NCBI GenBank assembly: GCA_964463175.1 | Contig: CAYXBJ010000178.1 | Span: 52,431-116,430 of the forward strand | Direction: 5' to 3' | DNA length: 64,000 nt | DNA from: an uncultured bacterium | GTDB lineage: Bacteria > Methylomirabilota > Methylomirabilia > Rokubacteriales > DASRDR01 | In this document: in pieces, positions 15,097-35,653 of the stretch | How positions within the stretch are numbered: position 1 is the first letter of the stretch | Layout of the letters: every line of letters begins with the position of its first letter | Notes under the pieces: model-generated | Told to the model about the DNA's origin: nothing | The model's database searches: none | Seen by the model: the letters and a program-made list of their open reading frames with translations, nothing else | Position numbers and translations under genes: made by a program

Positions 15097-16512
15097 TCAG
15101 CTCGAGCTAGACGCGAGCCGTTCTCGCAGCATCGAGCCACCGAGTATCCGGCGAAGCATGAGACTGCAGTACACCGTGAGGCCCACGGTCTGGGCGAGCA
15201 ATGCGAGGGCGATCCCGATATTCCCAAGTCGTGGCACCACCAATACCCACGCAAGAATCAGACCAGCGCTGGTGATTCCGGTGGCGAGCACGTACGCGCC
15301 AATCCGGTCGACCGCCATGTAGGCCGGGCGAAGCCAGAAGAACACGACTTGCCAGCCGGCTGCGAGCAGGAGGATCCGGGTAACTGGAATCGCCGGAAGA
15401 TACGCCGCCCCCACCAGCAGGACGAGGAACTCGCCCACAAGCACGGCGGCGCCGGCGGTCAGGAGGGCCAGCGGCATGCCGACGAGGAGAACCAGGCGCC
15501 ACACGTGTCGCCGGAACGCTTGCACGTCGCCTAACGCCCAGATGCGAATAAGCGCGGGGTAGGTGACCGTTTGGAGTGGACCGACCAGCAGCGCCAGCAG
15601 CGCGGCCACGCTCTTCGCGATCTTGTAATAGCCGACGTCGGTGGCCCCTCGGAAGAATCCCAGAATGGCCACGTCGAGCTGCTTCGACACCATGCCCACG
15701 GTAGCGTAGGCGCTGTTGAAGGCGAGAAAGCCCAGGACCTCGCGACGACGTCCGGCCAGCGTGGCACCGGATCCGTCGCTCAGCACGCCACCCCATTGGC
15801 GACGGGAGACGAGCGCCGACGCCAGACCGTAGAGGAGGCCATTTATCACCATCGAGATCGCATTGCCCCACACCACCCCGGCGACCTGCCATCCCGCCAA
15901 TAGGAACCAGAGAACCAGGCCACACCGGACGACATTGGTTGCGGCTTCGATCACGGCGATCGTCCCGAACCGCTGGAACGTAACGAGCACAGCAGTCGAG
16001 GTTCCAGCGACGGATCTCGGCACAAGCGCCAGCGTGTACGCGAAAATCAGCCACGCTAGCTCCGGCTGGTGGACGATCCGCACCGCGGCCCAGCCCGCCG
16101 TGAACGCCACGAGCACGGACGCCCCCAGAGCCACGCACAGATCGACGAGATACCCGAGCCGGCACATGGCCAGGGCGCGCCCGCGGTCTCCCCGGGCCTG
16201 GAACTCGCCCAGGTACTTGACCGAGGCCTCGGAGGAGCGCGCGTCCAGGATGTTGTACAGCAAGCCCGGGTAGGTCATCACCAGCGCGCTGACCCCGAAC
16301 AGCGACGGTCCAAGCCACCGGGCGACCAGCACGCCCAGGAGGACGTTCAGCCCCGCCCCGGCGACGTTCGAGATGGTGAGGATCCCGACGTGTCGGACGA
16401 ACGGTCGGCGGAGCCAGGCGGTGCCGATCGCGCGCCGGGCCGCTCCCCATACCCCCGGCCGGAAGCTCTCCTCGGGGTCGAGGGGCTCCGTCGGCGACTC
16501 GAACGTCTTCAC
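15097..16512 (-). CDS. Wzx-type oligosaccharide flippase (MOP superfamily, polysaccharide biosynthesis protein)
   Basis: ~12 predicted TM helices, 471 aa, typical PST-family composition (...LAFNSAYATVGMVSKQLDVAILGFF...). Confidence 0.75.
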   Translation of the reverse strand: MKTFESPTEPLDPEESFRPGVWGAARRAIGTAWLRRPFVRHVGILTISNVAGAGLNVLLGVLVARWLGPSLFGVSALVMTYPGLLYNILDARSSEASVKYLGEFQARGDRGRALAMCRLGYLVDLCVALGASVLVAFTAGWAAVRIVHQPELAWLIFAYTLALVPRSVAGTSTAVLVTFQRFGTIAVIEAATNVVRCGLVLWFLLAGWQVAGVVWGNAISMVINGLLYGLASALVSRRQWGGVLSDGSGATLAGRRREVLGFLAFNSAYATVGMVSKQLDVAILGFFRGATDVGYYKIAKSVAALLALLVGPLQTVTYPALIRIWALGDVQAFRRHVWRLVLLVGMPLALLTAGAAVLVGEFLVLLVGAAYLPAIPVTRILLLAAGWQVVFFWLRPAYMAVDRIGAYVLATGITSAGLILAWVLVVPRLGNIGIALALLAQTVGLTVYCSLMLRRILGGSMLRERLASSSS

Positions 16513-18801: not shown

Positions 18802-20268
18802 CTAACGCCCTGACGGCATCCCTGCCACGAAGGCGGTTCGCAGAAGGATGGCCAGGTCGAGAAGGAAGCCCTGGTTCTTGATGTAGTAGAGGTCGTACTC
18901 GAACTTCTCTCGGGAGTCCTCGAGAGACGCCGCGTAGCGGAAGTTCACCTGCGCCCACCCGGTGACACCGGGCTTCACGAGGAGCCGCGTGGAGTAGAGA
19001 CTGATCGTCTCCCGGAAGCCGTCGACGAAGTACGTGCCATCAGGGTCCGTCTTTCGCTTGCCCGACCGCATGATCGGAATGCGCTGGAGGAATCCCGCCA
19101 CGAAGACTTCCCGCTCCGGCCGCGGACCGACGAGGCTCATCTCGCCCTGCAGCACATTGATCAGCTGGGGCAACTCGTCCAGGCGCCACTTGCGCAGGAA
19201 GCGCCCGATGGAGGTGGTGCGCGGATCGTCCTCGGAGGCCCAGACCGGGCCGGTTCCGGCCTCGGCGTCCGGCACCATCGTGCGGAACTTCACGACCTTG
19301 AACACCCGGCCGTGCTGACCCAGCCGCTCCTGACGGTAGAACACCGGACCCTTTGATCCCATCTTCACGAGAGCCGCGACGCACAGCATGAGAGGTGCGG
19401 TCAGGACGAACAGCAGGGACCCCAGCGTCAGGTCCACCAGGCGCTTCACGCGCGGATTCATGAGCCGGATCTGGTTGAGGCTCAGGAAGAGTCCCCAGTG
19501 GTCCTGGTTGAAGGCGAGCGGCACCCGGCCGGTGAGCGTCTCGTACACGTGCAGGCCGTCGAGGATCTCGACCCCGCGCACGCGACAGCGAATCAGCTCC
19601 ATGACGAGATCCTCGTCACGGCGGTAGGGGGGAGCCAGGACGATGCACGTGGCATTCGCTTCCGCGGCCACCTGGCTCAGCGTTGCCGCCCCGACATATA
19701 CCGGAAGGTCGACCCGGCCGCCCTCGTTCTTCCCGTCGGAGCCCAGCACGAACCCGACCGGCTGGATCGAGCCGGCCGACGAGTTGAGCAAGAGCTCCGC
19801 GATGGCTTGACCCGCGTCGCCCGTCCCCAGGATCAGGGCGCGCCGCGGCGCCACGAAGTGCGCGGCGAACTGGTGCCCCACGAGACGCCAGACCCCGGAC
19901 ACCACCAGATTGATGAGCCCGAAGAGAATGAGAATGCCTCGACCGATCCGGTCGAGGCCCTGGAAGTAGACCAGCGACAGCGCGACCAGCCACGCGATCG
20001 CGTTGGCCGACACGTGGGTGACCAGCACCAGCGCGACGTCCCGGCGAATCCGCGAGATCTGGCTGCCGACCGCGTACAGGACCACGCCGTACACCAGCGA
20101 GACCACGGCAATCTGGGGCGCCTGCCTGAAGAGGTAGACAGGCGCTCCCGCGACGCCCAGCCGGAGGACGACCGCCAGCGCCAGGGACAGAAGCGCCCAC
20201 AGCCCCTCGATCAGGAGCAGGCGGACGTCGGTTGTCCGGACGCCCTCGAATCGCCGCCAGCGGCCCAC
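18802..20268 (-). CDS. Polyprenyl-phosphate hexose-1-phosphate transferase (WbaP/CpsE/EpsB-type bacterial sugar transferase), priming enzyme
   Basis: N-terminal TM helices and a central domain. C-terminal catalytic domain reads VFYRQERLG...FKVVKFRTM...MSLVGPRPE...KPGVTGWAQV. A ~25-aa insertion precedes KPGVTGWAQV. Confidence 0.85.
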   Translation of the reverse strand: MGRWRRFEGVRTTDVRLLLIEGLWALLSLALAVVLRLGVAGAPVYLFRQAPQIAVVSLVYGVVLYAVGSQISRIRRDVALVLVTHVSANAIAWLVALSLVYFQGLDRIGRGILILFGLINLVVSGVWRLVGHQFAAHFVAPRRALILGTGDAGQAIAELLLNSSAGSIQPVGFVLGSDGKNEGGRVDLPVYVGAATLSQVAAEANATCIVLAPPYRRDEDLVMELIRCRVRGVEILDGLHVYETLTGRVPLAFNQDHWGLFLSLNQIRLMNPRVKRLVDLTLGSLLFVLTAPLMLCVAALVKMGSKGPVFYRQERLGQHGRVFKVVKFRTMVPDAEAGTGPVWASEDDPRTTSIGRFLRKWRLDELPQLINVLQGEMSLVGPRPEREVFVAGFLQRIPIMRSGKRKTDPDGTYFVDGFRETISLYSTRLLVKPGVTGWAQVNFRYAASLEDSREKFEYDLYYIKNQGFLLDLAILLRTAFVAGMPSGR

Positions 20269-20280: not shown

Positions 20281-21459
20281 CTACCGGCGCAGTCGCGCGA
20301 GCGTCTCTCGGATCGTGTCGATCACGTACTCGACCGACTCCGCCGGCATGTCCGGATAGATGGGCAGCGAGATGGCTCCCGCGAACTGCCGCTCGGCCGA
20401 CGGGAACATCCCCGGCTGGTACCCGAAGCTCCGCTGGTAGGCGGGGTGCAGGTTCAGCGGCATGAAGTGGACGCTTGTGCCGATCCCCCGCGCCGCGAGC
20501 TCCCGCATCACGTCGTCGCGCCCCTTCGACAGGGCGTCCAGGTTCAGGCTGAGGACGTACAGGTGCCATGCGTGCACGTCACCCGACGGCTCGCTCGGAA
20601 TGCGGCAGGTGTCCAGGCCGTGGAGGCCCTCGCTGTAGCGCAAGGCGATCTCCCGACGCTGTTTTTGGAAGGCCTCGGCCTTGCGGAGCTGATGGAGGCC
20701 GATGGCCGCCGCGATGTCCGACAGGTTGTACTTGAACCCGTGGTCCTCGACCTCGTAATACCAGTTCCCCCGGTCACCGTAGCGATTCCAGGCGTCGGCG
20801 TTCAGACCGAACAGGCGCATGCGGCGAATCCGATCGGCCAGGTCATCGCGGTTGGTGGTGACCATGCCGCCCTCGCCGGTCGTGATCGTCTTCGTCGCGT
20901 AGAAGCTGAACCCCGCCACGTCGCCGAGGGTCCCGACCATCCGGCCCCGATTGGTCGCGGGAAACGCGTGCGCCGCATCCTCGATGACCGCGATGCCGTG
21001 CTGGCGCGCGAGTGCCATGATCGGATCCATGTCGCAGGCCCGTCCGGCAAAGTGCACGACGATGATCGCCTTGGTCCGATCGGTCACGTGGGACGCGAGG
21101 GTTCCGGCATCCACGTTCGGGTTCTCGAGACTGGAGTCGGCCAGCACCGGGCGCGCGCCGAGGTGAATCGCCGTGGCGGCCGTCGCGGTGAAGGTGTAGG
21201 CCGGGACGATGACCTCGTCGCCAGCGCCGACACCGACCGCCTCGAGGCCCAAGTGCAGAGCGCCGGTGCACGAGCTCACCGCGATGGCATGCTGGGCGCC
21301 GGTGAATACGGCGAACTCGCGCTCGAACCGCCGGGCCCGGGGGCCGGTCGTTAGCCAGCCAGATCTCAAGGTGTCCACGACCTCTCCGATCTCCTCTTCG
21401 CCGATCGAAGGAACGTGGTAGGGAACCTTCTTGATGGGCCGCGGCTCAATGCTGTCCAT
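20281..21459 (-). CDS. DegT/DnrJ/EryC1/StrS-family PLP-dependent sugar aminotransferase
   Basis: ...FSFYATKTITTGEGGMV (PLP-Lys region), 392 aa. Confidence 0.85.
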   Translation of the reverse strand: MDSIEPRPIKKVPYHVPSIGEEEIGEVVDTLRSGWLTTGPRARRFEREFAVFTGAQHAIAVSSCTGALHLGLEAVGVGAGDEVIVPAYTFTATAATAIHLGARPVLADSSLENPNVDAGTLASHVTDRTKAIIVVHFAGRACDMDPIMALARQHGIAVIEDAAHAFPATNRGRMVGTLGDVAGFSFYATKTITTGEGGMVTTNRDDLADRIRRMRLFGLNADAWNRYGDRGNWYYEVEDHGFKYNLSDIAAAIGLHQLRKAEAFQKQRREIALRYSEGLHGLDTCRIPSEPSGDVHAWHLYVLSLNLDALSKGRDDVMRELAARGIGTSVHFMPLNLHPAYQRSFGYQPGMFPSAERQFAGAISLPIYPDMPAESVEYVIDTIRETLARLRR

Positions 21460-23191
21460 TTGTTCGCTCCGCGTTTTCGCTCGCCAGCGGTAATCTGATT
21501 TCCAGGAGCGCCCCTCCTTGCTCGCAGGACATCAGCGAGGTCGTGCCCCCGTGTGCATTGACCACACTCCGAACGACCGACAGGCCGAGCCCCAGGTGCG
21601 GCCGGCTCTTCGTCGACACCAGCGGCGCGAAGACATCGTCTCGCGCGGCAAGCCCCAGTCCGCTGTCCTGCACGGAAATCAAGGCATGTCCGTTCTCGCG
21701 AGCCGTCCGCACGCGGATCTCTCCGCCTTCCGGCATGGCCTCGACGGCGTTCTCGATCGCATGGGCGAGAGCGGCCACGAAGTCAGGCATGGTGCGAGCC
21801 AGCAGAGGCTCGCTCATCAGCTCGAGACTGAGCCGGACCGGCGCGCGGCTCAGGTCGGTTCCCGCCTCCAGGCTGGCCCGGGCCATACTCATGACTCGCC
21901 GAACCACCTTGTTGAGGTCGGCCTCCCCGGTCCCGCCGGAGGTCTCGGACTCGTCCCCGCGAAGCGCACCGAGCACCGAACTGACCTCGCGCGTCACGGC
22001 CCCGGCCAGCGTGCTTGCTTCCAGCGAGCTCATTGGGGTGGACCCGTTCTCCCTCGTCAGGAGCTCCTGGATCCGGACTGGGAGGAGCGCCTCCACGAGT
22101 CGGTCGATCCCCTTGAGCGCCTCGCGCAGGGCAACGCGCTGGCTGGACGACAGCGTCTCGTAGGCTGCACGCCCGACGCATGCCCGCTCGTGCACGTGGT
22201 CCTCCAGCGTCGAGACCATCGCCAGCGCGTGGGTCGCAATCTCGGCCCGGTGCCGGAACGCCTCCAGCTCCCAATCGCTGAGCTGTAGCTCGTCCTCCAC
22301 GTACAGGCAGATGAGCCCCAGCAGTCGCCCCGCGCTCATGAGCGGCAGGGTGATCCGGGTCCACCGCCCGCTGTCCGGTATCGCCGCCCACAGGGGGTCC
22401 AGCGGATCGTCCGCGACGCTCGCGACTCCGATCGGCCACTCGGACTGCGTCCGGCCCCGGGCCAGCGCCAGCATCATCTGGGCCGCGTCCACGGAGGTCA
22501 CCGGCTCGGGGAATCGGTAGCGCGCAGCGACCGCGATGTCCCCCGCCGGAGTCACACGGAACAGGAGACCGCGCACTGACATCCCGAGCCACCCGCTCGC
22601 CTCCGAGGCGCACATGGCCAGGACGTCTTCGATGGTCCGGGCGTCGAACGTCTCGCGCACCATCCGGAGGAGAGACGCCATGGCCCGGACCTGCTGGCGC
22701 AGCCGCCCCGCCTCCCAGGCCTGAGCGGAGCTGGCGATGAACTCGTCGAGGATCGCGCGGCATCGCTCGCGCTTCTCGGCGCTCAAGGGCTCCCGCGCTG
22801 CGGAACGCATCTCGCCCAGCCCCAGAACGCCGACCGTCTCGTCGCCGTGCCGGATGGGCAGGAGGTAGATGGCGCGCAGGTCCGGAACCATCGACTGGGC
22901 CGCCTCGTCCTGGATGGCGACCTGATCGGCCGCTTCGAGATCGACGAACACCTCTTCGTGGCCCTGGAACGCCGCCCGGTGCGAGGGCGCCGTCGCGAGC
23001 GCCACCCGCGACCACAACGGGAGCGGCACGTCGAGGGGTCGCGCCGTCCCGACCGCCTTGACCGTGAGGCAGAAGGTCGGACGGTCCCACAGGGCGACGC
23101 TGGCAATGGTGACCGGCAGGCTGTCGGCGAGCTTCTGGGCAAGCTGCTGAGCCGCGGTCTCGAGGCCGAGCATGGTTCCGTTTCCGTTCAT
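21446..23191 (-). CDS. Cytoplasmic GAF-domain sensor histidine kinase
   Basis: C-terminal HATPase_c (ENAVEAMPEGGEIRV...DSGLGL...GLGLSVV). Upstream GAF-like regions; no TM segments. Start taken at MNGNGTMLG; the first ~124 codons of the track ORF overlap the upstream gene. Confidence 0.65.
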   Translation of the reverse strand: MNGNGTMLGLETAAQQLAQKLADSLPVTIASVALWDRPTFCLTVKAVGTARPLDVPLPLWSRVALATAPSHRAAFQGHEEVFVDLEAADQVAIQDEAAQSMVPDLRAIYLLPIRHGDETVGVLGLGEMRSAAREPLSAEKRERCRAILDEFIASSAQAWEAGRLRQQVRAMASLLRMVRETFDARTIEDVLAMCASEASGWLGMSVRGLLFRVTPAGDIAVAARYRFPEPVTSVDAAQMMLALARGRTQSEWPIGVASVADDPLDPLWAAIPDSGRWTRITLPLMSAGRLLGLICLYVEDELQLSDWELEAFRHRAEIATHALAMVSTLEDHVHERACVGRAAYETLSSSQRVALREALKGIDRLVEALLPVRIQELLTRENGSTPMSSLEASTLAGAVTREVSSVLGALRGDESETSGGTGEADLNKVVRRVMSMARASLEAGTDLSRAPVRLSLELMSEPLLARTMPDFVAALAHAIENAVEAMPEGGEIRVRTARENGHALISVQDSGLGLAARDDVFAPLVSTKSRPHLGLGLSVVRSVVNAHGGTTSLMSCEQGGALLEIRLPLASENAERTNGQH

Positions 23192-23204
23192 CGGAGTTGG
23201 CCCG

Positions 23205-26123
23205 TCACGATCCCGTGCCGGCCCCGACGGTGGCCAGGCCACGCAGGGCCGCAGCGTTGTCGGGCTGGCGCCGGAGCACGGTGCGATACTGCTGGATCGC
23301 CCGGTCGGCAAGTCCCGCCCGCGCGTACAGGTCGCCGAGCTCCGCGCCAAGGTCGCCGTCCGCCGGGCGGAGCCGCTGCGCCACTTCGTAGCTCGCGATC
23401 GCTTCCCGCAGGTAGCCGGCGCCCCGAAGGGCCTGCGCCGCCGCCCGGTGGAGGCGCCAATCGTCGCCGCCGACCGCGGCCGCCGTCCGGTACTCCTGGA
23501 ACGCCTCGGCGGCCTGCCCCCGCTGCTCGAGCAGCCGGCCGAGCTCGAGATGGACCCAGCCATCGTTCGGCTTGTCGCGAAGGATCTGGCGCCACAGCGT
23601 CACCGCCCGCTCCCACTGGCCGCGCTGGACAAACAGGGCGGCGAGCTCTCCCTGGACACGGTGGCGCCGGCTGGCCGGGCCAGGACCGGACTCGGCCAGA
23701 GTCGCAGCGGTGGCGAGCGCGATGTCCGCCTCCATCCCCTGGTTCGTCTGGGCGTAAACCATGGCGAGGACGGCGAAGACCTCCGCCTCTCCCGGCGCCA
23801 GCACCAGAGTGCGGCGGGCCTGTTCGAGCGCGGCCAGCGGGTCTTTCCGATTGATCAGCACCCGCGCGTACGCGAGTCGCGCCTCCACCTCGGTGGCGGG
23901 CTCCTGCGCGAGCGCGATCGCCTGCTCGAACGCGGCGGTGGCGCCCTGCGTTCGCCCGCGGCGCTCCAGATACGATCCGAGCCCGAGGAGCAGGTCGAAC
24001 TTCTGCGGCACGGTCGCCAGGATGAGCTGGTCGTCCACCTGCCGGGCCAGCAAGTCCTCGACAACGCCGTCGAGGAAGCCGGGGTTCAAGGCCACGGCCC
24101 GGCCGAACGCCGCGCTCGCCACCTCGTAGCGGTCCGGTTGACCGACGGCATTCAGCGCGAACGACCCCATGCGCCGGTGTCGATTCGCGTTCTGGGGGTC
24201 CCAGCGGACGGCGTCCTGGAAGTGCGCCAGGGCTTCGGGGAACACGCTCCGCTCCGACCCGACGGTCCCCGCGAGCCGCGGGTCAATCGGGGTCTGGATC
24301 GGGCTCTTCTGGACGACCTGGCGAACATTCTCCAGGGTTCCGAGGAACCAGCCGAACCGCTCGTGCGTGTCGGCCGCCCGCGGCCGGAGCTGGAGGCTCG
24401 TCCGATACGCCTCGTACGCGTCCGCGAGCAGGGGCTGCGCCGCCTCGAACTTCGCTGCGACGGACAGGTCGGACAGGCGCGCGCCGCTCGCGGTGATCCC
24501 GAGCGTCCAGGCGCGGCGCCCGAGCTCGGCGGAGACGTCGGCGAAGTCCGACCAGGCGGCCGGGTTCGAGCGATCCCAGGCAACGGCCGTCCGGAGGCCG
24601 GCGCGCGCCCGGATCAGATCCCCCTGCGGCGTCCCATCCCTTCGCCAGACACTGGTCACCGTGGAGGCGGCACTCGCTCGTTGCCATCCGGCGACGCTCG
24701 GGGGCGCCAGCAGCACCGTGGCGGCGACCACCGCCACCAGGGCGACGAAGACACTCACCGTGCTCCATCCCGGATTCAGGCGCCAGCCCCACCGCTCCAG
24801 GCCAACACGCTCCCCTTCACCATCCCGGTGGAGGGTCGCCGCCAGCGGCAGCAGCCCGGCAATCAGCGCCAGCATCACCGCATTGCCTGGCATGTGGAGC
24901 CCGAAGTCCACGACACTGTGAACCGTGACCGCGACGATCGCGCCAGTGCCTCCCAGCAGGAGCCCGCGGACGAACGGATCGCGGCGACCGCGCCACGCCT
25001 GCACCAGGGATGTCAGCAGCGCCACCAGTGCCCATCCGGCGATCAGCAGGCCCACCACTCCCGTCTCGGCCAGCAGCTGCAGGAAGTCGTTGTGCGCGTA
25101 GTCCACGAACTTGTCGGCCGGAACCTCGACTGGTTGATAGGGCGCGAAGCCATCCCGGAACGCGCCGAGCCCGATCCCGGCGACCGGCGCATCACCGACG
25201 ACTCGCAGCGTCGTCGCCCAGATTCTCGAGCGCAGATCCGACGCGGGCTCCCGCAGCACCTCGGAGAATCGGTCGGTCACCGCCCCGAGTCCGACCCAGC
25301 CGGCGTAGGTGACAACGCCGAGCGCGAGCGCCAGGATGGCCAGCGTGACGTGGTTCCCGGATCGAGCCGTGCGCGCCATGGCGAGCATGGCCAGCACGCC
25401 GACCACGGTACTCACCACACCGCCGCGGGAGAGCGTGAGGGCGAGCGCGAGCGCCAGGACAAGCACGCCACCGACCAGGAACACTCGCACCGTCAGACCC
25501 TCGAGGGCCCCCGCGGGAGGCGCCGACTCGGACCGCCCCGCGTGTCCGCGGCGCGAATGGGCGGAGGGACGCAAGAGCAGTCCCAGGGCCATGAACAGGG
25601 CGATGGAGAAGTAGAGGGCCTGGTGGTTCGGGTTGACGAAGGTGCTCGTCAGGCGGCCCGACGGGCTGGCCGCGAGCCCGCTCCAACCGATCTTGAGCTG
25701 TCCAGCAAACCCCACCCCGGCCAGGACGACCGCCCAGCCAACCAGCGCGAGCGTCAGCCGGGTGAGGCGCGCGCGGGTCATCGGGAGGCCGGTGACCACG
25801 AGGAACAGACCGAAGTAGGCGAAGTAAAGCCGCGCGCTCTCCCAGGTTGCGTACCGGTTGATCGAGCCGCCGGGCGAGAAGACCTGCCAGCCGACGAGGA
25901 CGGCCATCGCCACCGCCGGTCCCAGCAGTGGAGTCCGGCGAATCTCGAGCTCTCCGGACACCGCCATCCGAACGATCCACAGGGCGAGCAGCAGCGCCAC
26001 GCCGCCCTCGATGCCCGCCTGGGCCCAGGGCACGACGGCACCGAGGGGCAGCGGCGCGAACATCAGGAGCGCCACCACTCCGACCTCGATGACGGCGTCG
26101 ATAACCCGGGCGAGTCCAGTCAC
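23205..26123 (-). CDS. O-antigen ligase/polymerase-family (Wzy_C domain) membrane protein fused to a long C-terminal TPR-repeat domain
   Basis: N-terminal ~430 aa polytopic with Wzy_C hallmarks (LALTLSRGG, YAHNDFLQLLAETGVVGL). C-terminal ~450 aa of TPR-like repeats (...AYARVLINRKDPLAALEQARRTLVLAPGEAE..., ...LGDLYARAGLADRAIQQYRTVLRRQPDNAAALRGLA). Confidence 0.75.
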   Translation of the reverse strand: MTGLARVIDAVIEVGVVALLMFAPLPLGAVVPWAQAGIEGGVALLLALWIVRMAVSGELEIRRTPLLGPAVAMAVLVGWQVFSPGGSINRYATWESARLYFAYFGLFLVVTGLPMTRARLTRLTLALVGWAVVLAGVGFAGQLKIGWSGLAASPSGRLTSTFVNPNHQALYFSIALFMALGLLLRPSAHSRRGHAGRSESAPPAGALEGLTVRVFLVGGVLVLALALALTLSRGGVVSTVVGVLAMLAMARTARSGNHVTLAILALALGVVTYAGWVGLGAVTDRFSEVLREPASDLRSRIWATTLRVVGDAPVAGIGLGAFRDGFAPYQPVEVPADKFVDYAHNDFLQLLAETGVVGLLIAGWALVALLTSLVQAWRGRRDPFVRGLLLGGTGAIVAVTVHSVVDFGLHMPGNAVMLALIAGLLPLAATLHRDGEGERVGLERWGWRLNPGWSTVSVFVALVAVVAATVLLAPPSVAGWQRASAASTVTSVWRRDGTPQGDLIRARAGLRTAVAWDRSNPAAWSDFADVSAELGRRAWTLGITASGARLSDLSVAAKFEAAQPLLADAYEAYRTSLQLRPRAADTHERFGWFLGTLENVRQVVQKSPIQTPIDPRLAGTVGSERSVFPEALAHFQDAVRWDPQNANRHRRMGSFALNAVGQPDRYEVASAAFGRAVALNPGFLDGVVEDLLARQVDDQLILATVPQKFDLLLGLGSYLERRGRTQGATAAFEQAIALAQEPATEVEARLAYARVLINRKDPLAALEQARRTLVLAPGEAEVFAVLAMVYAQTNQGMEADIALATAATLAESGPGPASRRHRVQGELAALFVQRGQWERAVTLWRQILRDKPNDGWVHLELGRLLEQRGQAAEAFQEYRTAAAVGGDDWRLHRAAAQALRGAGYLREAIASYEVAQRLRPADGDLGAELGDLYARAGLADRAIQQYRTVLRRQPDNAAALRGLATVGAGTGS

Positions 26124-26881
26124 TTGGAGCGTGCCTCTCCCGACGAGCGGCCCTTGACCGGGTCATAAGCGCTTCGCGTGTAATACCCGTCGTACGTGTC
26201 GTAGTACCGCTTGGAGTAGCCGTGCGCCGCGGCATCGAACCGGTTGAGCACGGCGCCGATGATCCGTCCCCTCACCGCCTCGATGCGCTCCTTTGCGCGC
26301 CGCAGCGCCACCTCTGGTGTCTGCCCGCTGTCCACGACCAGCAGCACGCCGTCGACGTGCGGCGCGAGCGCGCACGCATCGCTCGTTGCGAGCGCCGGCG
26401 GGGAATCGAGGATCACGACGTCGAAGCGCTCCGCCACCGTGTTCAGGAACTCGTGCATCCGTCGGGAGCCCAGGAGCTCGGCGGGGTTCGGAGGCGTCGG
26501 ACCACTCACCACCAGGGAGAGATTCGGGACGGCGCTCTTGAGGAGCACCGCGGCCAGGAGCGAGTCGCCGACGAGGTACGACGACAGCCCCGGCGTGGTG
26601 GGCTGCCGGAACAGACTGTGGACGCTGGGGCGCCGGAGGTCCGCCTCGACCAGGAGGACCGAGCGTTCCCCCTGCGCCATGCTGATCGCCAGATTGGCCG
26701 CGGTCGTCGACTTGCCCTCACCGGGGCCGGCGCTCGTCACCAGGATGCGCCGGAGCGGGACGTCGGGATTCGCGTAATGGAGGTTGTTCCGGAGCACCCG
26801 GAATGCCTCGGCGGCGAACGACTGAGGGTCATTCAGCGTCACGAGGCTCGAGGGCGAGGACGAGCTCTTCAACGGGGTCAT
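26120..26881 (-). CDS. Bacterial tyrosine autokinase, cytoplasmic subunit (CpsD/CapB-like BY-kinase)
   Basis: Walker A SAGPGEGKSTTAANLA, Walker A' VLLVEADLRRP, Walker B DVVILDSPP, C-terminal Tyr cluster YSKRYYDTYDGYYTRSAY. Confidence 0.85.
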   Translation of the reverse strand: MTPLKSSSSPSSLVTLNDPQSFAAEAFRVLRNNLHYANPDVPLRRILVTSAGPGEGKSTTAANLAISMAQGERSVLLVEADLRRPSVHSLFRQPTTPGLSSYLVGDSLLAAVLLKSAVPNLSLVVSGPTPPNPAELLGSRRMHEFLNTVAERFDVVILDSPPALATSDACALAPHVDGVLLVVDSGQTPEVALRRAKERIEAVRGRIIGAVLNRFDAAAHGYSKRYYDTYDGYYTRSAYDPVKGRSSGEARSK

Positions 26882-26895: not shown

Positions 26896-28254
26896 CTAGC
26901 TACGCGCTCGGGGGAGCATGGGAATCAGGGAGAACACGGGTACACCGAGCGCATGCTCCACCTGCTCGGGCGTGCGAACGCTGTCGTCCATGTATTCGAG
27001 GAAGAAGGCAGCGCCGAGGCCCACGATCAGCCCCATGAGCGCGCCGAGCGCCAGGTTCAGCGTCTTTCGCGGCTTGATGGGGGACGTGGGGACGATGGCC
27101 GCCTCCACGATCCGGATGTTGTTCGAGTCCAGACCCTGGCTGAGGCTCGTCTCCTTGAGGCGCTTCAGCAGCACGTCATACAGCTGCTGGTTCGAATCCG
27201 CCTCTCGCTTCAGGATCCCGTACTGGATCTCCTTCTTCCCGAGAGCCTGGGCCTCGTCGCGGTACTGGTTCACGGCCTGGAGCATCGCGTTCTCGCGCGC
27301 CTTGAGCGCGTTGTACTCGCTCTCCATGCTGAGCGAGAGCCGGCCCACCTCTTCGCGGATCTTCAGCTGGATCTCGTCGATCTGGGACTGGATCTTGACG
27401 ACCTCGGGGTGCTTCTCGCGGTATGTCTTGAGGAGCTTGGAGCGCTGAACCTCGAGCTCGACGAGCTGGCCCTTCAGCTTCTGGATCAACGGATTGTTGA
27501 TCACCATCGGCGAGGACTCCAGCAGCTCGGGCTGCGTCGAGGCGCGCTTGAGCTCGCCCAGGCGCGTCTCCATCTCGAGCCGCTTGGCCTTCGCCTCGAT
27601 GTACCCGCTGTTGAATTCGGCGAGCTTACGGACCCCCAGGCTTTGCTTCTCCTCGACCTGGACCAGCCCCGCCTGCTCGCGGTAACGCTGAAGCGCCAGC
27701 TCCGACTCGTTCACCTTGTTCTTGAGGTCGGAGACCTGCGCGGTGAGCCAGCTGAGGGCATCGCGCGCGGACGACAGCTTCAGCTCGAGATTCTGATGGA
27801 CGTACGTGGTCGCCAGGGTATTGGCGATCTCCGCCGCGAGCTTGGGGTCCTCGTCCTCGACACGGATCTCGATCAGGCGCGTGTTCCGGATCGGCTCGAC
27901 CGAGATCGCGCCGAGGAACGACGACGCCGGATCGGCCGCCAGGGCCAGCCCCGGCTTCTTCGTCTTGAGCTCGAGGGTATCGATCACCCGCTCGGCCACG
28001 GGCCGGCTCTTGACGATCTGGACCTGCGTCTCGAAGAACTCCGTGGATTCGGGCGCGATGCCCGCGGCGTCCTGGAAGTTCACCACCCGCGGCCCCTCAC
28101 GCTCGAGGAGCGCCTTGGTCGCCGCCCGGTAGACCGGACGCTGGAGATAGGTGCCGAGAGCCACCGTCGCGACGATCACGACGAAGCACGCGACGACCAG
28201 CCAGGCGTGCTTCCGCAGCACACGGATGTACTCACGCAGATGGACCTGTTCCAT
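26896..28254 (-). CDS. Polysaccharide co-polymerase (Wzz/GumC/CpsC-like PCP-2b, transmembrane subunit without kinase domain)
   Basis: N-terminal TM (LVVACFVVIVATVALGTYL), long coiled-coil periplasmic domain, C-terminal TM (LNLALGALMGLIVGLGAAFFL). Start may be the upstream M (28290). Confidence 0.8.
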   Translation of the reverse strand: MEQVHLREYIRVLRKHAWLVVACFVVIVATVALGTYLQRPVYRAATKALLEREGPRVVNFQDAAGIAPESTEFFETQVQIVKSRPVAERVIDTLELKTKKPGLALAADPASSFLGAISVEPIRNTRLIEIRVEDEDPKLAAEIANTLATTYVHQNLELKLSSARDALSWLTAQVSDLKNKVNESELALQRYREQAGLVQVEEKQSLGVRKLAEFNSGYIEAKAKRLEMETRLGELKRASTQPELLESSPMVINNPLIQKLKGQLVELEVQRSKLLKTYREKHPEVVKIQSQIDEIQLKIREEVGRLSLSMESEYNALKARENAMLQAVNQYRDEAQALGKKEIQYGILKREADSNQQLYDVLLKRLKETSLSQGLDSNNIRIVEAAIVPTSPIKPRKTLNLALGALMGLIVGLGAAFFLEYMDDSVRTPEQVEHALGVPVFSLIPMLPRARS

Positions 28255-28304
28255 GAAACCCTCACTCGACACGGTGTGTCCCGGCGGCATTGCGGCCCCC
28301 TAGC

Positions 28305-29450
28305 CTAGAAGTAGCTCTCCGGCACGACGACCACGTCGTTGGCCGTGAGCGGAATGTCCCTGTCCTTGCGGCCCCGCTTGATGACCTCGTTGAGATCCAC
28401 GACGATCGTTTCCTGGCGACCGTCGCGATAAGTCCGGATGATCTTCGTCCGGTTCGGGGCAGCCTTGTCGGTGAAGCCTCCCGCGAGCGCGACGCCCTCG
28501 ATGGCGGTCCCCGCCTGCTCGAGCTGGTAGGCGCCGGGCTTCTTCACCTCGCCCATGACGTAGAAGGTGTTCCCGGCCGGCACGAGGACCGTGTCCCCCT
28601 CCGCCAGCAGAAAGTCGCGGGCGCGTGGGTCGGCGCCGCTCAGATCGATCGGGATCGTCTCCTGGCTGCCGTCCGGCTGCTTCCTGAGCACCTTGGAGAC
28701 CGACGAGGCGGCCCGCTCCGAGAAGCCGCCGGCCAGCGTGATGGCCTCGAGTGCCGAGGTCTCCTTCTCCAGCACGAAGGCGCCGGGCTTCTTCACCTCG
28801 CCCATGACGTAGAAGCTCGTCTGCTTCGCGATGTAGACGGTGTCACCGTTCTCGAGGGGAAGGTTCTCCGAGCTGTCGCCGTCGAGGAGCTTCCGGAGAC
28901 TCACGCGAATCGTCGTGCTACCCGCCGCGCCCGGAGTCACGGGACCATCGGCCTTCGGGAGGCGAACGACCACCGCCTGGCGGCCCGCGAACTTGCTGGG
29001 GCCCCCCGCCTGGGACAGCACGTCCAGCAGCGTCGAGCGCCCGGTGAGGAAGTAGGTGCCGGGCTTGTCGGCCTCGCCCAGGACGAAGACCCGTTGCGAC
29101 CGGTACTCCTGGACCGACACGGTCACCTGGGGATCGACGAGGTAGTCCTTCCCGAGCTGCTGCTGGAGGCGGGTCTCCAACTCGGTCGGGGTCAGGCCTC
29201 CCGCCGCCACGTCTCCGATCAGAGGAAAGGGCATGCGTCCGTCCCCCGCAATGACCGACGTGCGGGCGAGGTCCTCATGTCCGTAGACCGTGATCTTCAG
29301 AATGTCCCCGGGTCCGATCCGGTAGTCCTGGCCCTTGGGGCTGGAGGCCTGAGCGCGTGCGGCGCCCGCCCCGAGTAGGAGCAGACCCAAGGCCAGCAGG
29401 AGGAGGCCGTAGAGGGGGAGCCTCGATCGGTGGGCGAGCTTCATCATCAT
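28305..29450 (-). CDS. Outer-membrane polysaccharide export protein (OPX/Wza family), short form with two SLBB-type repeats; no C-terminal OM helix
   Basis: Signal peptide. Poly_export-like N-domain (DYRIGPGDILKITVYGHEDL), two GDT..FYVMGEVKKPGAY repeats. Ends ...VVVPESYF. Confidence 0.85.
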   Translation of the reverse strand: MMMKLAHRSRLPLYGLLLLALGLLLLGAGAARAQASSPKGQDYRIGPGDILKITVYGHEDLARTSVIAGDGRMPFPLIGDVAAGGLTPTELETRLQQQLGKDYLVDPQVTVSVQEYRSQRVFVLGEADKPGTYFLTGRSTLLDVLSQAGGPSKFAGRQAVVVRLPKADGPVTPGAAGSTTIRVSLRKLLDGDSSENLPLENGDTVYIAKQTSFYVMGEVKKPGAFVLEKETSALEAITLAGGFSERAASSVSKVLRKQPDGSQETIPIDLSGADPRARDFLLAEGDTVLVPAGNTFYVMGEVKKPGAYQLEQAGTAIEGVALAGGFTDKAAPNRTKIIRTYRDGRQETIVVDLNEVIKRGRKDRDIPLTANDVVVVPESYF

Positions 29451-29590: not shown

Positions 29591-31222
29591 CTAGAAGTAG
29601 CTCTCCGGGACGACGACGACGTCGTTGGCGGCCAGCGGTAAGTCCTTGTCTTTCCTACCGCGCTTGATCACCTCGTTGAGGTCCACGACGAATGTCTCCT
29701 GGCGGCCATCAGGCAGCGTACGGATCACTTTGGTGCGATTTGGCGCTGCCTTGTCCGTGAATCCGCCCGCCATGGCGATCGCTTGGATCGCGGTCGTGGT
29801 CTGATCAAGCTGATAGGCTCCTGGCTTCTTCACTTCGCCCATCACGTAGAAGGTGTTCCCGACGGGCACCAGGAGAATATCTCCATCCTTGAGGAGGAAT
29901 TCCCTTGCCTTTGGATCCGCCCCGGAGAGATCCAGGATATGGATCTCCTCCGTCCCGGAGGCAAGTCGGCGCGTGAGCTTCACCTGGGTATGGAGGGCCT
30001 TCTCGGTGAACCCCCCGGCGAGCGTCAGCGCCCCCACCGCCGTCGTGGCCGGATCGAGCGGGTAAGCGCCCGGCTTCCGCACCTCACCCAGGACGTAGAA
30101 CGCGTTGCCGGACGGGACCAGGAGCGTGTCGCCGTCGCGGAGTGGATAGTCGCGGCCGGCACGATCCGACCCCGAGAGGTCCAGGACGACGGTCTGCTCC
30201 TCCCCGGAGGCTCCCCGGCGAATCAGCTTGACCTGGCTCTGACCCGCCTTCTCGGTGAACCCCCCGGCGATCGTCACCGCCCCGAAGGCGGTCGTCGACT
30301 TCTCGAGGGGATAGGCTCCGGGCTTCCGCACCTCGCCCGACACGAAGAACGTGTTGCCGCGCGGGATGAGCAGGGTGTCACCCTCGGCGATTTGCACGTC
30401 CCGGGCGCGCGGATCAGCCAGGTCGACATCGAGGCTCTCCTGACTGCCGTCCGCCCGCTTTCGCAGGATCTTGGCCCCGCTCGGCGCGGCCCGATCGGTG
30501 AAGCCGCCGGCGAGCGTCACCGCCTCGAGGGCGTTCGTCTCCTTGTCCATTGCGTAGGCGCCCTGGCGCAGAACCTCCCCCAGGACGAAGAACGAGGTCA
30601 GCTTCGGGACATAGACGGTGTCGCCGTTCTGGAGGAGGATGTTCTCGCCCGGCACGCCATCCAGCAGGCGTTTGAGATCGGCGCGGAACGCGACGCTGCC
30701 CGCCGCGCCCGGGGTCACAGGGCCATCGGACTGAGCCCCGCGAACGACCACGACTTGGCGCCCGGCGTTCTTGCCAGGCCCTCCGGCCTGGGACAGGACG
30801 TCTAGCAGCATTGTCTGGCCGGTCAGCGCGTAGGTCCCGGCCTTGTCCACCTCGCCCAGCACGAAGACGCGCTGGGAACGATACTCCGCCACGGTGACGG
30901 AGACCTGCGGGTTGACGAGATAGTCCTTCCCGAGGAGGTCCCGGAGGAGCGTCTCGATAGCACCCGGCGTGAGGCCGCCCACGCGAACATCGCCGATCAG
31001 CGGGAACTGGAACGAGCCGTCCCCCGAGACGACGACCTGCTTTGTCAGGTCGTCGTGCCCCCAGACGGTGATCTTCAGGACGTCCTTCGCCCCGACCTTG
31101 TACTCCGTCGGACCGCCGCTACCCGCAGCCTGGGCGGCAGCGGGACCCGCGGGAACGAGCAGGAGGGCAACGAGTAGGAGGGCGGTCATGGCCGCCGGAA
31201 ACCATCGCACACTTACACCCAT
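29591..31222 (-). CDS. OPX/Wza-family export protein, long paralog with four SLBB-type repeats; no C-terminal OM helix
   Basis: Signal peptide (MTALLLVALLLVPAGPAAAQA). EYKVGAKDVLKITVWGHDDL, then four GDT..(F/Y)V.GEV(R/K)KPGAY repeats. The last ~90 aa are near-identical to the short paralog. Start set at MGVSVRW (31220-31222); the track ORF's upstream 160 codons are not credible. Confidence 0.8.
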   Translation of the reverse strand: MGVSVRWFPAAMTALLLVALLLVPAGPAAAQAAGSGGPTEYKVGAKDVLKITVWGHDDLTKQVVVSGDGSFQFPLIGDVRVGGLTPGAIETLLRDLLGKDYLVNPQVSVTVAEYRSQRVFVLGEVDKAGTYALTGQTMLLDVLSQAGGPGKNAGRQVVVVRGAQSDGPVTPGAAGSVAFRADLKRLLDGVPGENILLQNGDTVYVPKLTSFFVLGEVLRQGAYAMDKETNALEAVTLAGGFTDRAAPSGAKILRKRADGSQESLDVDLADPRARDVQIAEGDTLLIPRGNTFFVSGEVRKPGAYPLEKSTTAFGAVTIAGGFTEKAGQSQVKLIRRGASGEEQTVVLDLSGSDRAGRDYPLRDGDTLLVPSGNAFYVLGEVRKPGAYPLDPATTAVGALTLAGGFTEKALHTQVKLTRRLASGTEEIHILDLSGADPKAREFLLKDGDILLVPVGNTFYVMGEVKKPGAYQLDQTTTAIQAIAMAGGFTDKAAPNRTKVIRTLPDGRQETFVVDLNEVIKRGRKDKDLPLAANDVVVVPESYF

Positions 31223-31269: not shown

Positions 31270-32463
31270 TCAGTAGGTCAGTATCACGCTCGCCTTGATG
31301 CGGTTGTCCGTGTAGCTGAACTCGTTGAAGTTCGAGTTCAGGTCCAGGTAGTTGTAGCCGATCTCGAACGCCAGCCACTTCTTCATCTGGTACTTGAGGC
31401 TCACCCCGGCCTCGAAGAACACGTCCTCGCGCTGGGCGGTCTTCGTCCCGACGGTGCTGTCCTCCGGATAGTCGTTGACGCCGCCGAGCCCTCTCACCCG
31501 GAGGACCAGCCGCTCGCTGAGGAAGTGCCGGACTTCGACACCAGCGTAGTTCGAGACGTAGTAGAGCTGTCCCTCGAACGTCGACTCGACGTTCGCTCGG
31601 CCACCGAAGACCCGGACCTCCGACGGCTCGCGGTACTTCCAGATGATGTTCCCCTCGACGATCAAGCCGTCCCAGTCCTTCACCAGCGGATTGTCGTAAT
31701 TCTTCCACTCCCAGCCCGCCTTGACGAGAAGCGTCGTCTTCGCGGTGACATCGCCCTTGAGACCGAGCCAGAACCGCCAGCCCTCGGAGTCGCGGACGGC
31801 GGCGGACGCGGCGTCATCGTAGCGAACCACCACGTAGTCGAGCTCGCCAAGGACCGACGTCTTCGGCAAGAAGCGATAGAAGAACGTTCCGGTCCCGGTG
31901 TAGTCTTGGCGGTTGAGATTCTCTTCGGGGGCATCGTAGTCGACGAGGAACCAGCGGAAGTTCGCGTCGAACGAATAGCGCTCCCGGAGGGTGTAGTTCG
32001 CTCCGGCGTCGAGCGTGTTCTCGGTCCGCTCGACAAGCTGCGTCAGCTCCGGCACCGGGAACCCGGCGAAGTCGTCGGTGATGATGAACCGATCGCTGAG
32101 CCGCAGCGAAAGATTCCAGGGAAAGTTGTACTGCCCATCGACCAGGGCGTTGTGGTGGACGGTGTTGAGATCGGTGTTGTCGGTGTACTCGAGGATGTCG
32201 GCGCGGTAGCCGATGCGCGCGGTGTAGTGGTTGCCCGGAAGCTCGATGAGGATACCCGGGCTGATGACCCAGATGAAATCCTGGATCTTGTCGGTGTTTG
32301 TGAGCAGGATGTTGTCGTCGTACTCGCCCGACAGCTCGAGCGACGTGAGTATCCGGAAGGGGCCGAGCTGGATGTTACCCTGGGCAGCCGCGGGCCCCGC
32401 CAGCCCCATGATCAGCAGCAGGGCGATTCCAACCGAGATCCCCGCAGCGCGCCCTCTCAACAT
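31270..32463 (-). CDS. Predicted outer-membrane beta-barrel protein (candidate OM partner of the helix-less OPX proteins)
   Basis: Signal peptide MLRGRAAGISVGIALLLIMGLAGPAAAQG. Alternating hydrophobic/aromatic beta-strand pattern throughout; aromatic C-terminus ...IKASVILTY. GC ~53-55%. Confidence 0.55.
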   Translation of the reverse strand: MLRGRAAGISVGIALLLIMGLAGPAAAQGNIQLGPFRILTSLELSGEYDDNILLTNTDKIQDFIWVISPGILIELPGNHYTARIGYRADILEYTDNTDLNTVHHNALVDGQYNFPWNLSLRLSDRFIITDDFAGFPVPELTQLVERTENTLDAGANYTLRERYSFDANFRWFLVDYDAPEENLNRQDYTGTGTFFYRFLPKTSVLGELDYVVVRYDDAASAAVRDSEGWRFWLGLKGDVTAKTTLLVKAGWEWKNYDNPLVKDWDGLIVEGNIIWKYREPSEVRVFGGRANVESTFEGQLYYVSNYAGVEVRHFLSERLVLRVRGLGGVNDYPEDSTVGTKTAQREDVFFEAGVSLKYQMKKWLAFEIGYNYLDLNSNFNEFSYTDNRIKASVILTY

Positions 32464-32559: not shown

Positions 32560-33132
32560 CTACTCGTTCCCGGTCGGGCTCGTCTGCTGCGAGATCCACC
32601 CCGGCAGGTTCGTCTGGAAATTCTCGGGCGGCAGGCCCCCGTAGGTCTCCACGAACTTGAGGATGGTGAACGTCCCCAGGGTCTGGAGGAACGGCACCGA
32701 CCCGCCCGACTGCGCGATCGGACCCGTCCCCGACATGCGGATGGTGATGTTGCCCGGATCGTCCCCGAGGGTGCGACCGACGATCTCGGCCTTGTTGGGC
32801 TCCACCACGATCACCCGGCCATTCGGCAAGAGGATCTCGACGCGTCCCTCGCTGCTCTCCACGAGGATGAGGTTCTTGGCCGAGGTGACCACTCGCGCCT
32901 CGCCGACGAGCGTCTTGACGACCAGCTTGCTCGCGTCCGGCTGGAAGGAGGTCTCGGCCGACGCGCCCTGTCCCAGCACCAACTCGAGACCGCCGAAGGA
33001 GGTCTTGCTAGGTCCGTTGATGATGCGCTTCTCGTCTTCCGCGGCCCAGGTGGCCGTGGCAGCAACCACGATCAGTGCGGCGAGCAATGCCGACAATGCC
33101 CTACGCGTCATATTCCCCTTCCCCCAATCCTC
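32560..33132 (-). CDS. Small secreted protein of unknown function (first gene downstream of the sigma-54 promoter)
   Basis: ATG 33130-33132 is preceded by GGGGAAGGGGAAT (strong Shine-Dalgarno). Signal peptide MTRRALSALLAALIVVAATATWA|AEDE. ~190 aa, no known motif. Confidence 0.6.
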   Translation of the reverse strand, partial: EDWGKGNMTRRALSALLAALIVVAATATWAAEDEKRIINGPSKTSFGGLELVLGQGASAETSFQPDASKLVVKTLVGEARVVTSAKNLILVESSEGRVEILLPNGRVIVVEPNKAEIVGRTLGDDPGNITIRMSGTGPIAQSGGSVPFLQTLGTFTILKFVETYGGLPPENFQTNLPGWISQQTSPTGNE

Positions 33133-34831: not shown

Positions 34832-34852
34832 ACCAGGAGCCTGGAGACAACC

Positions 34853-35287
34853 ATGAGCGATGATGCGGCGAGCCGTCCGCCCCGGACGGCCGCAACAGAG
34901 GAACGCGAGCGCATCCTCGTCTGCGACGACGATCCGCGCGTGAGGGAAACGATCGTCGAGGCCATGGCCGTCGAGTCGCTGGACGTGGACACCGCAGACC
35001 GCGCCGTGGACGCGATCCAGCGGATCATGCACACGAGCTACCGGGCGCTGATCCTGGACCTGAAGCTCCCCGGTCTGGGCGGGCTCGACGCCATCGCCGT
35101 CGTGAAACGGTTCGACGAGGCGCTGCCGATCATCGTGATGACGGGCCACGCCTCCTACCAGGTGGAGCAGGCGGCCCGGGCGGCCGGGATCTTTTACTAC
35201 CTCGTCAAGCCGTTCAACCTCGACGAGCTGCTGGCCGCGGTCCGCGCCGCGGTCCGGTTCCGGGAGGGTAGTCGGCGGCGCAGCTGA
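34853..35287 (+). CDS. Single-domain response regulator (CheY-like receiver)
   Basis: VCDDD, LILDLKLPGLGG, IVMTGHAS, YLVKPF; 144 aa, no output domain. Confidence 0.8.
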   Translation: MSDDAASRPPRTAATEERERILVCDDDPRVRETIVEAMAVESLDVDTADRAVDAIQRIMHTSYRALILDLKLPGLGGLDAIAVVKRFDEALPIIVMTGHASYQVEQAARAAGIFYYLVKPFNLDELLAAVRAAVRFREGSRRRS

Positions 35288-35308: not shown

Positions 35309-35653
35309 TCAGGCCTCGGCGAGCAGTCCCCGCACCACTTCGGTCAGGCGGTCGCGGAGCTCCGGATCATCCGGCTCGTAGACATCGAGGATTCCCAGCA
35401 CCCGGACCTTGGGTGCGTGCGCGGGCCAGTGCTTCCGGATGTAAGCCTCGTGTTCCGGTTCCATGACGCAGACCACGTTCGCCCACGCGAGATCCCGTGA
35501 CGTGAGCGGGCGGCCGCCGGGGTCGGGATCGACGCCGGCCGAGCGCGCTTCGTGCTCGCCGCGTCTCGCGACGCTCCAGCTGAGCACCTGAAAGATCTGC
35601 TCACCGACCCGGCTCCGGCAGACATTGCCTCGGCAGACGAACAGGACCCGCAT
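35309..35653 (-). CDS. Low-molecular-weight protein-tyrosine phosphatase (Wzb-like, LMW-PTP/ArsC fold)
   Basis: P-loop VCRGNVCRS (CX5R), DVYEPDD (D-P-Y-like general-acid region); 114 aa. Confidence 0.7.
   Translation of the reverse strand: MRVLFVCRGNVCRSRVGEQIFQVLSWSVARRGEHEARSAGVDPDPGGRPLTSRDLAWANVVCVMEPEHEAYIRKHWPAHAPKVRVLGILDVYEPDDPELRDRLTEVVRGLLAEA

Follow-up and report, generated by a model that had tools for sequence, protein, structure and literature searches.

The lipopolysaccharide (LPS) O-antigen ligase WaaL has 12 membrane helices, and both of its ends are cytoplasmic. It is poorly understood how polymers of the Wzx/Wzy route come to their end, leave undecaprenyl diphosphate (Und-PP) and enter the export channel of the polysaccharide co-polymerase (PCP) and the outer-membrane polysaccharide export (OPX) protein. 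Here, we describe a minus-strand gene (23205..26123) in a 64-kb stretch of DNA from an uncultured Rokubacteriales bacterium (contig CAYXBJ010000178.1; the whole stretch is called the window below). Its product of 972 amino acids (aa) consists of a WaaL-fold Wzy_C membrane domain, a 13th transmembrane (TM) helix and a tetratricopeptide repeat (TPR) solenoid predicted to lie in the periplasm. With somewhat less than even confidence, we favor the reading that the protein performs a conserved, glycan-unspecific ligase-like transfer step over the reading as a repeat-unit polymerase. Given its place in an export module for extracellular polysaccharide (EPS), its coupling to a kinase gene, its arm of 470 aa and the usual presence of a separate, variable glycosyltransferase of the GT-C class, the protein is a concrete candidate for the termination or hand-over step.

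Several described systems share parts of this architecture. The protein is 17% identical to WaaL of Cupriavidus metallidurans (CmWaaL; CAZy GT121), from which it differs by its 13th TM helix and its TPR arm, and its context is an EPS export module instead of LPS core genes. PrmJ from the promonan cluster of Sphingomonas belongs to the same Pfam family and carries the annotation 'O-antigen ligase family protein'; EPS depends on PrmJ, and its cluster also encodes a beta-barrel, OPX, PCP and bacterial tyrosine kinase (BY-kinase). However, the PrmJ type has no large TPR arm and is the sole Wzy-like gene of its cluster, whereas a second GT-C partner usually accompanies the TPR-fused type, which is located in the conserved rather than the variable part of the locus. 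The protein O-oligosaccharyltransferases PglL and PglS also have a Wzy_C core followed by a periplasmic C-terminal domain after the final TM helix, which is an analogy of architecture only; this domain influences acceptor choice, and the enzymes have relaxed glycan specificity. WadA, a bimodular GT121-GT25 ligase of Brucella and Mesorhizobium, is a precedent for a GT-C transferase with an acceptor-side accessory domain, although the fused domain is GT25 and not TPR. GT-C enzymes of the PMT_2/TMTC type with TPR repeats are a further precedent of this kind, but their catalytic class is GT-C_A and their donors are lipid-phosphate monosaccharides; one protein in our homologue list (P0118) was such a PMT_2 and TPR protein. 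Periplasmic TPR solenoids tied to polysaccharide export are also found in PgaA, BcsC, AlgK, PelB and PrsT. In these proteins, the TPR domain has an outer-membrane tether or is a lipoprotein, and it is not part of a glycan transferase; our protein scores far below the cut-offs of these families. The combination of Wzy_C and TPR domains is already on record in databases, where these proteins are labeled 'O-antigen ligase family protein' or 'TPR repeat protein/O-antigen ligase' (JGI). Full-text literature searches found no paper describing or testing a Wzy_C-TPR fusion.

The open reading frame (ORF) starts at GTG and reads from 26123 down to 23205. Pfam matched Wzy_C (PF04932) to residues 220-361 (25041..25466) above the gathering score (E 8.9e-21, 74.7 bits against a cut-off of 31.7), and about a dozen TPR families also matched the protein (TPR_11 with E 2e-20, TPR_19, TPR_2 and others). 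We collected 62 full-length homologues of 946-1003 aa with 39-77% identity, and the AlphaFold2 (AF2) model had a mean predicted local distance difference test score of 89.2 and a predicted template modeling score of 0.82. A preliminary description of this DNA had read the gene as a Wzy_C domain fused to a long C-terminal TPR array in a 972-aa polytopic protein, and Pfam, the homologues and the model all agree with it. The two Wzy_C hallmarks that it named, LSRGG and YAHNDFLQLL, were located at residues 231-235 and 342-351, respectively. The array, put at about 450 aa, is detectable by Pfam from approximately residue 500 to 966, and its modeled length is about 470 aa.

With a G+C content of approximately 69%, the window has long ORFs on either strand. 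On the plus strand, an ORF of 998 aa with an ATG start (23172..26168) lies antisense over the whole gene; its G+C content is 0.87 at first codon positions and 0.76 at third positions (GC3), and its translation is rich in Arg, Pro and Gly. We regard it as a shadow ORF and not a gene. GC3 was 0.876 in the minus-strand frame, compared with 0.758 in the opposite-strand frame. On GC3, the Pfam matches, the 62 homologues and the AF2 model, the minus-strand frame of 972 aa is the real gene.

To reach WaaL from this protein, a profile was needed. When phmmer was run against the PDB sequences with the whole protein or with its N-terminal domain alone, it returned TPR proteins or nothing, and no WaaL. 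The clade profile found WaaL with E 6.5e-16, and WaaL R191, R265 and H313 were aligned with R233 (in LSRGG), R298 and H344 (in YAHND), respectively. These three residues are invariant across the 62 orthologues, as are E353, G355, D406 and N414. R233 is located within the Wzy_C match, and R298 and H344 are located in a large periplasmic catalytic loop (residues 278-346; 25086..25292). The sequence HNDFLQLLAETGVVG also fits a motif, H[NSQ]x9Gxx[GTY], that Schild et al. 2005 reportedly described for WaaL. Since Foldseek with the full-length model gave TPR proteins alone, a second model was built for residues 1-495. The closest solved structure was CmWaaL (PDB 7TPG/7TPJ), which has the same catalytic triad. 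Residues 1-450 (24774..26123) form a WaaL-like core with a cytoplasmic N-terminus, and this core has the 12 TM helices and the large periplasmic loop before TM10 that characterize the GT-C_B fold. Taken together, these results identify the protein as an enzyme with the WaaL fold (GT-C_B, Wzy_C), a type that works with Und-PP-linked glycans.

In WaaL, the two arginines bind the diphosphate and for the histidine, activation of the acceptor has been proposed, whereas polymerase families of clan GT-C1 have Asp or Glu at the position of this histidine (Meitil et al. 2024). The triad of our protein is R, R, H instead of the R, R, D/E reported for polymerases, and H344 shows no exception among the orthologues. 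A sister group of Wzy_C proteins of 559-642 aa with a short C-terminal TPR-like motif (P0075, P0077, P0084-P0086, P0098, P0100, P0103, P0104 and P0111) carries EHAE[ND/S] in place of xAHND, with Glu at the WaaL His position and His two residues earlier. This group may be a polymerase-like branch of the clade.

The hydropathy profile gave 13 membrane helices. With the N-terminus inside, 19 Lys and Arg residues fall in cytoplasmic loops and only 4 in short periplasmic loops. The 13th helix (residues 451-478, with a hydropathy peak of 2.65) extends as one helix to residue 494 in both AF2 models, so that the whole element covers residues 451-494 (24642..24773). Because homology to the WaaL fold fixes the orientation and the 13th helix crosses the membrane once more, the TPR arm is predicted to sit in the periplasm. 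The same is suggested by CBM60, a calcium-dependent carbohydrate-binding module, which was found at the extreme C-terminus of two relatives with the order Wzy_C, TPR and CBM60 (L025 6006-8480 and L046 9974-12562; E 3-4e-9). A periplasmic C-terminal domain at the equivalent place in PglL-type enzymes agrees with this topology as well. The preliminary description had also reasoned from a periplasmic TPR platform, and the cytoplasmic placement that would have refuted its reading is not what the topology gives. Judging by CBM60 at the tip of the arm in these two relatives, the domain content shows an arm that in all likelihood works among glycans outside the cytoplasm.

The arm itself (residues 495-968; 23220..24641) is modeled as a TPR-like solenoid, in which residues 500-968 contain 24 helices, that is, about 12 TPR-like pairs. 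Conserved positions of the arm among the 62 orthologues are mostly structural (Ala, Leu, Pro and Gly). The conserved non-structural residues (W539, G547, R558, H587, R601 and the motif RFGWFLG) are clustered near the membrane, adjoining the catalytic domain. The TPR domain of PgaA binds the polymer (PMC9384988) and its processing enzyme. CBM60 in the relatives and the analogy with this polymer-binding domain make the glycan chain and/or the PCP/OPX ring the most plausible binding partners of the arm, under the ligase-like and the polymerase readings alike.

The best match of the arm in NCBIfam was PrsT (E 9e-20), and the module of the gene contains a histidine kinase and a sigma-54-dependent response regulator, as in the PrsK/PrsR/PrsT set. 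Both observations would fit a mainly non-catalytic scaffold or sensor, in which a membrane-anchored PrsT-like TPR module reports the status of periplasmic polymer to the adjacent GAF kinase and the sigma-54 regulator. However, the PrsT match reached 70 bits, far below the cut-off of 312, no exosortase was found among the scanned ORFs of the window, and the invariance of the catalytic R, R and H together with many other periplasm-facing residues argues for an active enzyme. We therefore consider a scaffold or sensor very unlikely. On the same two grounds, the missing exosortase and the low PrsT score, an XrtA/PEP-CTERM system was rejected. The regulatory genes on both sides of the module (21446-23191 and 33401-35653) resemble PrsK/PrsR of PEP-CTERM loci, without the exosortase.

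By both sequence and fold, the arm is matched best by TPR domains from two protein glycosyltransferases, OGT and SPY, which would fit a special case of the ligase-like reading, namely a PglL-like protein O-oligosaccharyltransferase with the TPR domain selecting periplasmic protein acceptors. A candidate anchor or glycosylation acceptor would be the small secreted protein of 183 aa encoded by the first gene of the module (32560..33111, minus strand). It is 71-88% identical in four other loci (L001 3051-3578, L002 3021-3560, L003 3125-3676 and L009). Conservation is high in its core, whereas its C-terminal tail is variable and rich in Ser, Thr, Pro and Gln; its orthologues carry no Pfam family annotation. 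Apart from the architecture of PglL and PglS, this role would fit Neisseria PglO, in which the choice of acceptor is set by periplasmic segments at the C-terminus, and the clade profile matched the solved 'oligosaccharyltransferase' 9rmk at E 4.5e-7. That match is much weaker than the one to WaaL. PglL_A (PF15864) and Wzy_C_2 (PF11846) gave no match in the whole protein at E 0.001 or in fragments at E 10, and TfpM, an O-oligosaccharyltransferase model of NCBIfam (NF058641), gave only 16.7 bits, with a cut-off of 600. Compared with the C-terminal domain of PglL and PglS, the arm is several times as long, its matches to the TPR domain of OGT are of a generic kind, related arms carry CBM60, which suggests binding of glycan and not peptide, and the gene is embedded in a polymer-export operon. 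An asparagine ladder like that of OGT was looked for by eye and rejected, as the TPR repeats have Glu or Ala at that position. A PglL-like role is thus improbable. When it is counted in as a protein-acceptor variant, the ligase-like reading as a whole has about an even chance.

The genes for EPS biosynthesis and export in the window are all on the minus strand, and the two response-regulator genes are on the plus strand. The GTG start of the gene overlaps the stop codon of the preceding gene (GTGA), which encodes a BY-kinase-like P-loop ATPase (26120..26881; TIGR01007 above cut-off with E 2e-49, AAA_31). Upstream of it on the same strand are genes for an EpsF-like PCP with Wzz and GNVR domain matches (26896..28290), a short OPX of 381 aa (Poly_export and SLBB, TIGR03027 above cut-off; 28305..29450), a long OPX of about 543 aa with Poly_export and five SLBB domains (29591..31222, with a likely ATG start at 31222 followed by a signal peptide) and an outer-membrane beta-barrel of the BBP2_2 family, the OPX partner in a composite translocon (31270..32463; PF10082 with E 3e-36 and a partial TIGR03016 match). 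Downstream are genes for a soluble GAF-GAF histidine kinase, which immediately follows our gene (21446..23191), a DegT aminotransferase (20281-21459), the initiating polyprenyl-phosphate glycosylphosphotransferase (PGT; Bac_transf, TIGR03025 above cut-off; 18802..20268) and the Wzx flippase (Polysacc_synt; 15097..16512), all on the minus strand. Seven GT4 glycosyltransferases, a deacetylase, methyltransferases and a UDP-glucose dehydrogenase are also encoded in the locus. The locus thus contains Wzx, PGT and PCP, as a Wzx/Wzy-type locus does, and it combines an EpsY/EpsE-type OPX, a separate beta-barrel, PCP and BY-kinase for composite export (EpsE and pepcterm_export above cut-off, EpsY partial). 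A composite translocon of OPX and a separate beta-barrel has been described for Myxococcus (PMC9601211). These results show that the gene is a fixed, translationally coupled member of a Wzx/Wzy-type EPS assembly and export module.

This context also bears on whether the protein is the WaaL of the organism, transferring polymer onto lipid A-core to give a product like K-LPS. WaaL is its closest solved structure and shares its catalytic triad. However, no LPS-core genes were found within the 64-kb window, and the gene always accompanies OPX, PCP and kinase export genes in four other loci (L001-L004). Furthermore, WaaL has neither the 13th helix nor a periplasmic C-terminal domain. An LPS ligase is very unlikely here, and the distinction from a WaaL of an LPS-core locus, which the preliminary description had put to a check by homology, holds by gene context.

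A locus with Wzx, PGT, PCP, BY-kinase and OPX needs a polymerase, and the protein is the only member of the WaaL/Wzy superfamily among the polytopic ORFs of the 35-kb locus. It may therefore be the Wzy repeat-unit polymerase, whose arm would hold the growing chain, dock to PCP/OPX, raise processivity and feed the channel. PrmJ of the related promonan cluster, which is required for EPS, was assigned as Wzy, CBM60 on the arm of two relatives fits the holding of a chain, and a gene translationally coupled to that of the kinase agrees with the functional link already known for Wzy and PCP. We regard this reading as a serious possibility, although a doubtful one in view of the comparisons between loci given below.

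The other polytopic proteins of the 35-kb locus are Wzx, PGT and the product of 8485..9822 (minus strand; the end is 9933 from the longest start). The preliminary description had named the last one as a rival candidate for the polymerase. It does exist as a polytopic protein with 12 hydrophobic segments, set among the GT4 genes, but it is not Wzy-like: hhalign against the family of our protein gave a probability of 0.4%, and it was rejected as a Wzy homologue. There was no direct Pfam match. A word-based search found seven homologues and a full profile search found 942 representatives; when 41 distant members were sampled, PMT_2 matched in 23 (best 5.8e-13) and PMT in five. Asp89 of its YDDE..H motif is invariant in the family. 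According to these matches, the protein is a divergent GT-C_A enzyme of the ArnT/PMT type, which belongs to a class not known as polymerases. Its donor may be a lipid-phosphate monosaccharide made elsewhere or a lipid-diphosphate oligosaccharide. The question of which of two Wzy candidates is the polymerase thus becomes one of a WaaL-fold enzyme versus a PMT_2-like enzyme. A member of the same family is also present in the L004 locus.

Comparison with other Rokubacteria contigs separates the gene from the glycan-specific part of the locus. In L001, L002 and L003, where the protein is 43%, 71% and 40% identical, respectively, the gene order is the same (phosphatase, regulators, small protein, barrel, OPX, OPX, PCP, kinase, our gene and GAF kinase), and the glycosyltransferase region after the module differs. 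The more distant paralogous type in L004 (27% identity) keeps the barrel, OPX, PCP, kinase and our gene, with one OPX instead of the tandem pair of L001-L003. Between the window and L001 or L003, the export proteins are 60-74% identical, the membrane domain of the protein 44-47% and its arm 38-39%, whereas PGT is 31% identical or not found and Wzx is undetectable. Compared with L002, the protein is 71% and Wzx 45% identical. Over 56 orthologues, the membrane domain had a median identity of 46% and the arm one of 41%. Intermediate sequence diversity has been described for ligases, which deal with many donors and one acceptor (Meitil et al.). Such a pattern does not favor the polymerase reading: the protein is 44-71% conserved where Wzx is 45% identical or undetectable and the glycosyltransferase sets differ, so it does not diverge together with Wzx. 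In two of three comparative tests, it departs from what a serotype-specific Wzy should show. L001 also has a fusion of a receiver domain with a Polysacc_synt_2 dehydratase.

The species-genome scan returned 504 relatives of the Wzy_C core. The scan patterns were drawn from this core only, and mostly TPR-less relatives were returned. We analyzed 84 loci with 10-kb flanks, 78 from the scan and six fetched earlier. PCP and BY-kinase genes were present within 10 kb in half of them (42/84), including other phyla, which would also be expected of a polymerase; most relatives had 420-480 aa. Long TPR-bearing forms were found in Planctomycetia (L025), Omnitrophota (L046 and L056), a deltaproteobacterium (L016) and Bryobacteraceae (L026), and L055 has a shorter extension. 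This architecture is widespread in rarely cultured soil and sediment phyla (Rokubacteria, Planctomycetia, Omnitrophota and Acidobacteria). In L025 (5038-6006), L056 (8299-9201) and L046 (9110-10001), a gene of about 260 aa lies between the kinase and TPR-fused genes in place of the Rokubacteria GAF kinase; by eye, its product looks like a helix-turn-helix and HD-domain protein (motifs HDIGH and HHER.DG).

Eight of about 11 loci with a clearly extended version encode a second GT-C enzyme. A short Wzy_C partner adjoins Wzx in L025 and L056 and lies elsewhere in the locus in L046 and L055. The L003 partner is a Wzy-like protein with Glu beside the His position. A PMT_2-like partner is present in the window and in L004, and L006 has a weak PMT_2 match. 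Between L025 and L056, the short Wzy_C proteins and Wzx are both 53% identical and the long proteins 37%; between L025 and L046, the long protein is 53% and the short one 24% identical. Across these three loci, the short gene seems to behave as a glycan-specific cassette with Wzx, and the long gene does not. Both the co-occurrence of a second Wzy-like gene (L003, L025, L046, L055 and L056) and its tracking of Wzx in L025 and L056 tell against the long protein as the polymerase. In six of nine short-type loci with Wzx captured, a further polytopic ORF was present. Most polytopic ORFs adjacent to Wzx were left unclassified, as hhalign has little sensitivity when single sequences are compared with profiles (a Wzy_C protein with a Pfam match got a probability of only 23%).

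We favor the ligase-like reading because of the R, R, H triad, the intermediate diversity, the place of the gene in the conserved part of the locus and the recurring variable partner. A more specific version, that the protein is a dedicated terminal enzyme that takes the finished polymer off Und-PP at the PCP/OPX mouth, by transfer to a conserved anchor or by release, with the arm, which bears a carbohydrate-binding module at its tip in some phyla, guiding the chain, is conceivable but rather unlikely in all its details. Under the ligase-like reading, R233 and R298 would hold the diphosphate of the Und-PP-linked glycan, by analogy with WaaL R191 and R265, and H344 would activate the acceptor hydroxyl as proposed for H313. 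The chain would be built by the variable second GT-C enzyme, a short Wzy-like protein in some loci; in the window, this would be the PMT_2-like protein of 8485-9822. Where the export channel begins, the finished Und-PP-linked polymer may then be moved en bloc onto a conserved acceptor, or released; candidate classes for this acceptor are a lipid, a glycan or a protein. Binding of the glycan chain and/or the periplasmic PCP/OPX ring by the TPR arm would couple transfer to export.

Several points weigh against this reading. To our knowledge, no ligase has been described within an EPS export module, and the acceptor is a postulated one. We found no precedent for the PMT_2-like class as a repeat-unit polymerase, and the protein of 8485-9822 is the only alternative polymerase in the window; moreover, the locus has no GT2 polyprenyl-phosphate sugar synthase that would account for the PMT_2-like enzyme in another way. 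In the promonan cluster, which has been dissected experimentally and has a similar core of beta-barrel, OPX, AAA+ ATPase, PCP and kinase, the single protein of the O-antigen ligase family was taken as Wzy. The gradient of identity could instead reflect a conserved reducing-end sugar, and DegT aminotransferase and PGT genes often come after the module. The histidine is an imperfect marker, since it occupies the WaaL position in three of five short partner proteins and Glu does so in some relatives of the clade. Finally, partners were detected with a crude hydropathy filter within the 10-kb flank only, and the co-variation rests on three loci. If the protein is the terminal enzyme, it would supply a missing step, namely how Wzy-made polymers leave the lipid carrier and enter export. 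If it is the polymerase instead, it would be one with the physical means to reach the export ring in the periplasm.

The remaining genes of the module and its surroundings are as follows. Divergent from the module, a sigma-54-dependent response regulator (33401..34831, plus strand; from the Pfam annotation of its orthologues in L001-L003) is followed by a single-domain response regulator (34853..35287, plus strand; orthologues annotated as Response_reg) and a Wzb-like low-molecular-weight protein tyrosine phosphatase (35309..35653, minus strand; orthologues annotated as LMWPc). The GAF-GAF kinase gene occupies an equal position in L001-L003. Between PGT and a GT4 gene, a minus-strand ORF (17647-18750) encodes a 367-aa protein with a twin-arginine-like signal (DRRTILTG) that had no Pfam or NCBIfam match and is conserved in L002 (17400-18587). 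Beyond approximately 36 kb, the DNA of the window encodes functions unrelated to the EPS locus. After a MacB/FtsX-type ATP-binding cassette (ABC) permease (36507-37835), at least three beta-ketoacyl synthase genes are located on the minus strand (37723-42685), and two sets of branched-chain amino-acid ABC transporters and a 911-aa AMP-binding enzyme are encoded farther on.

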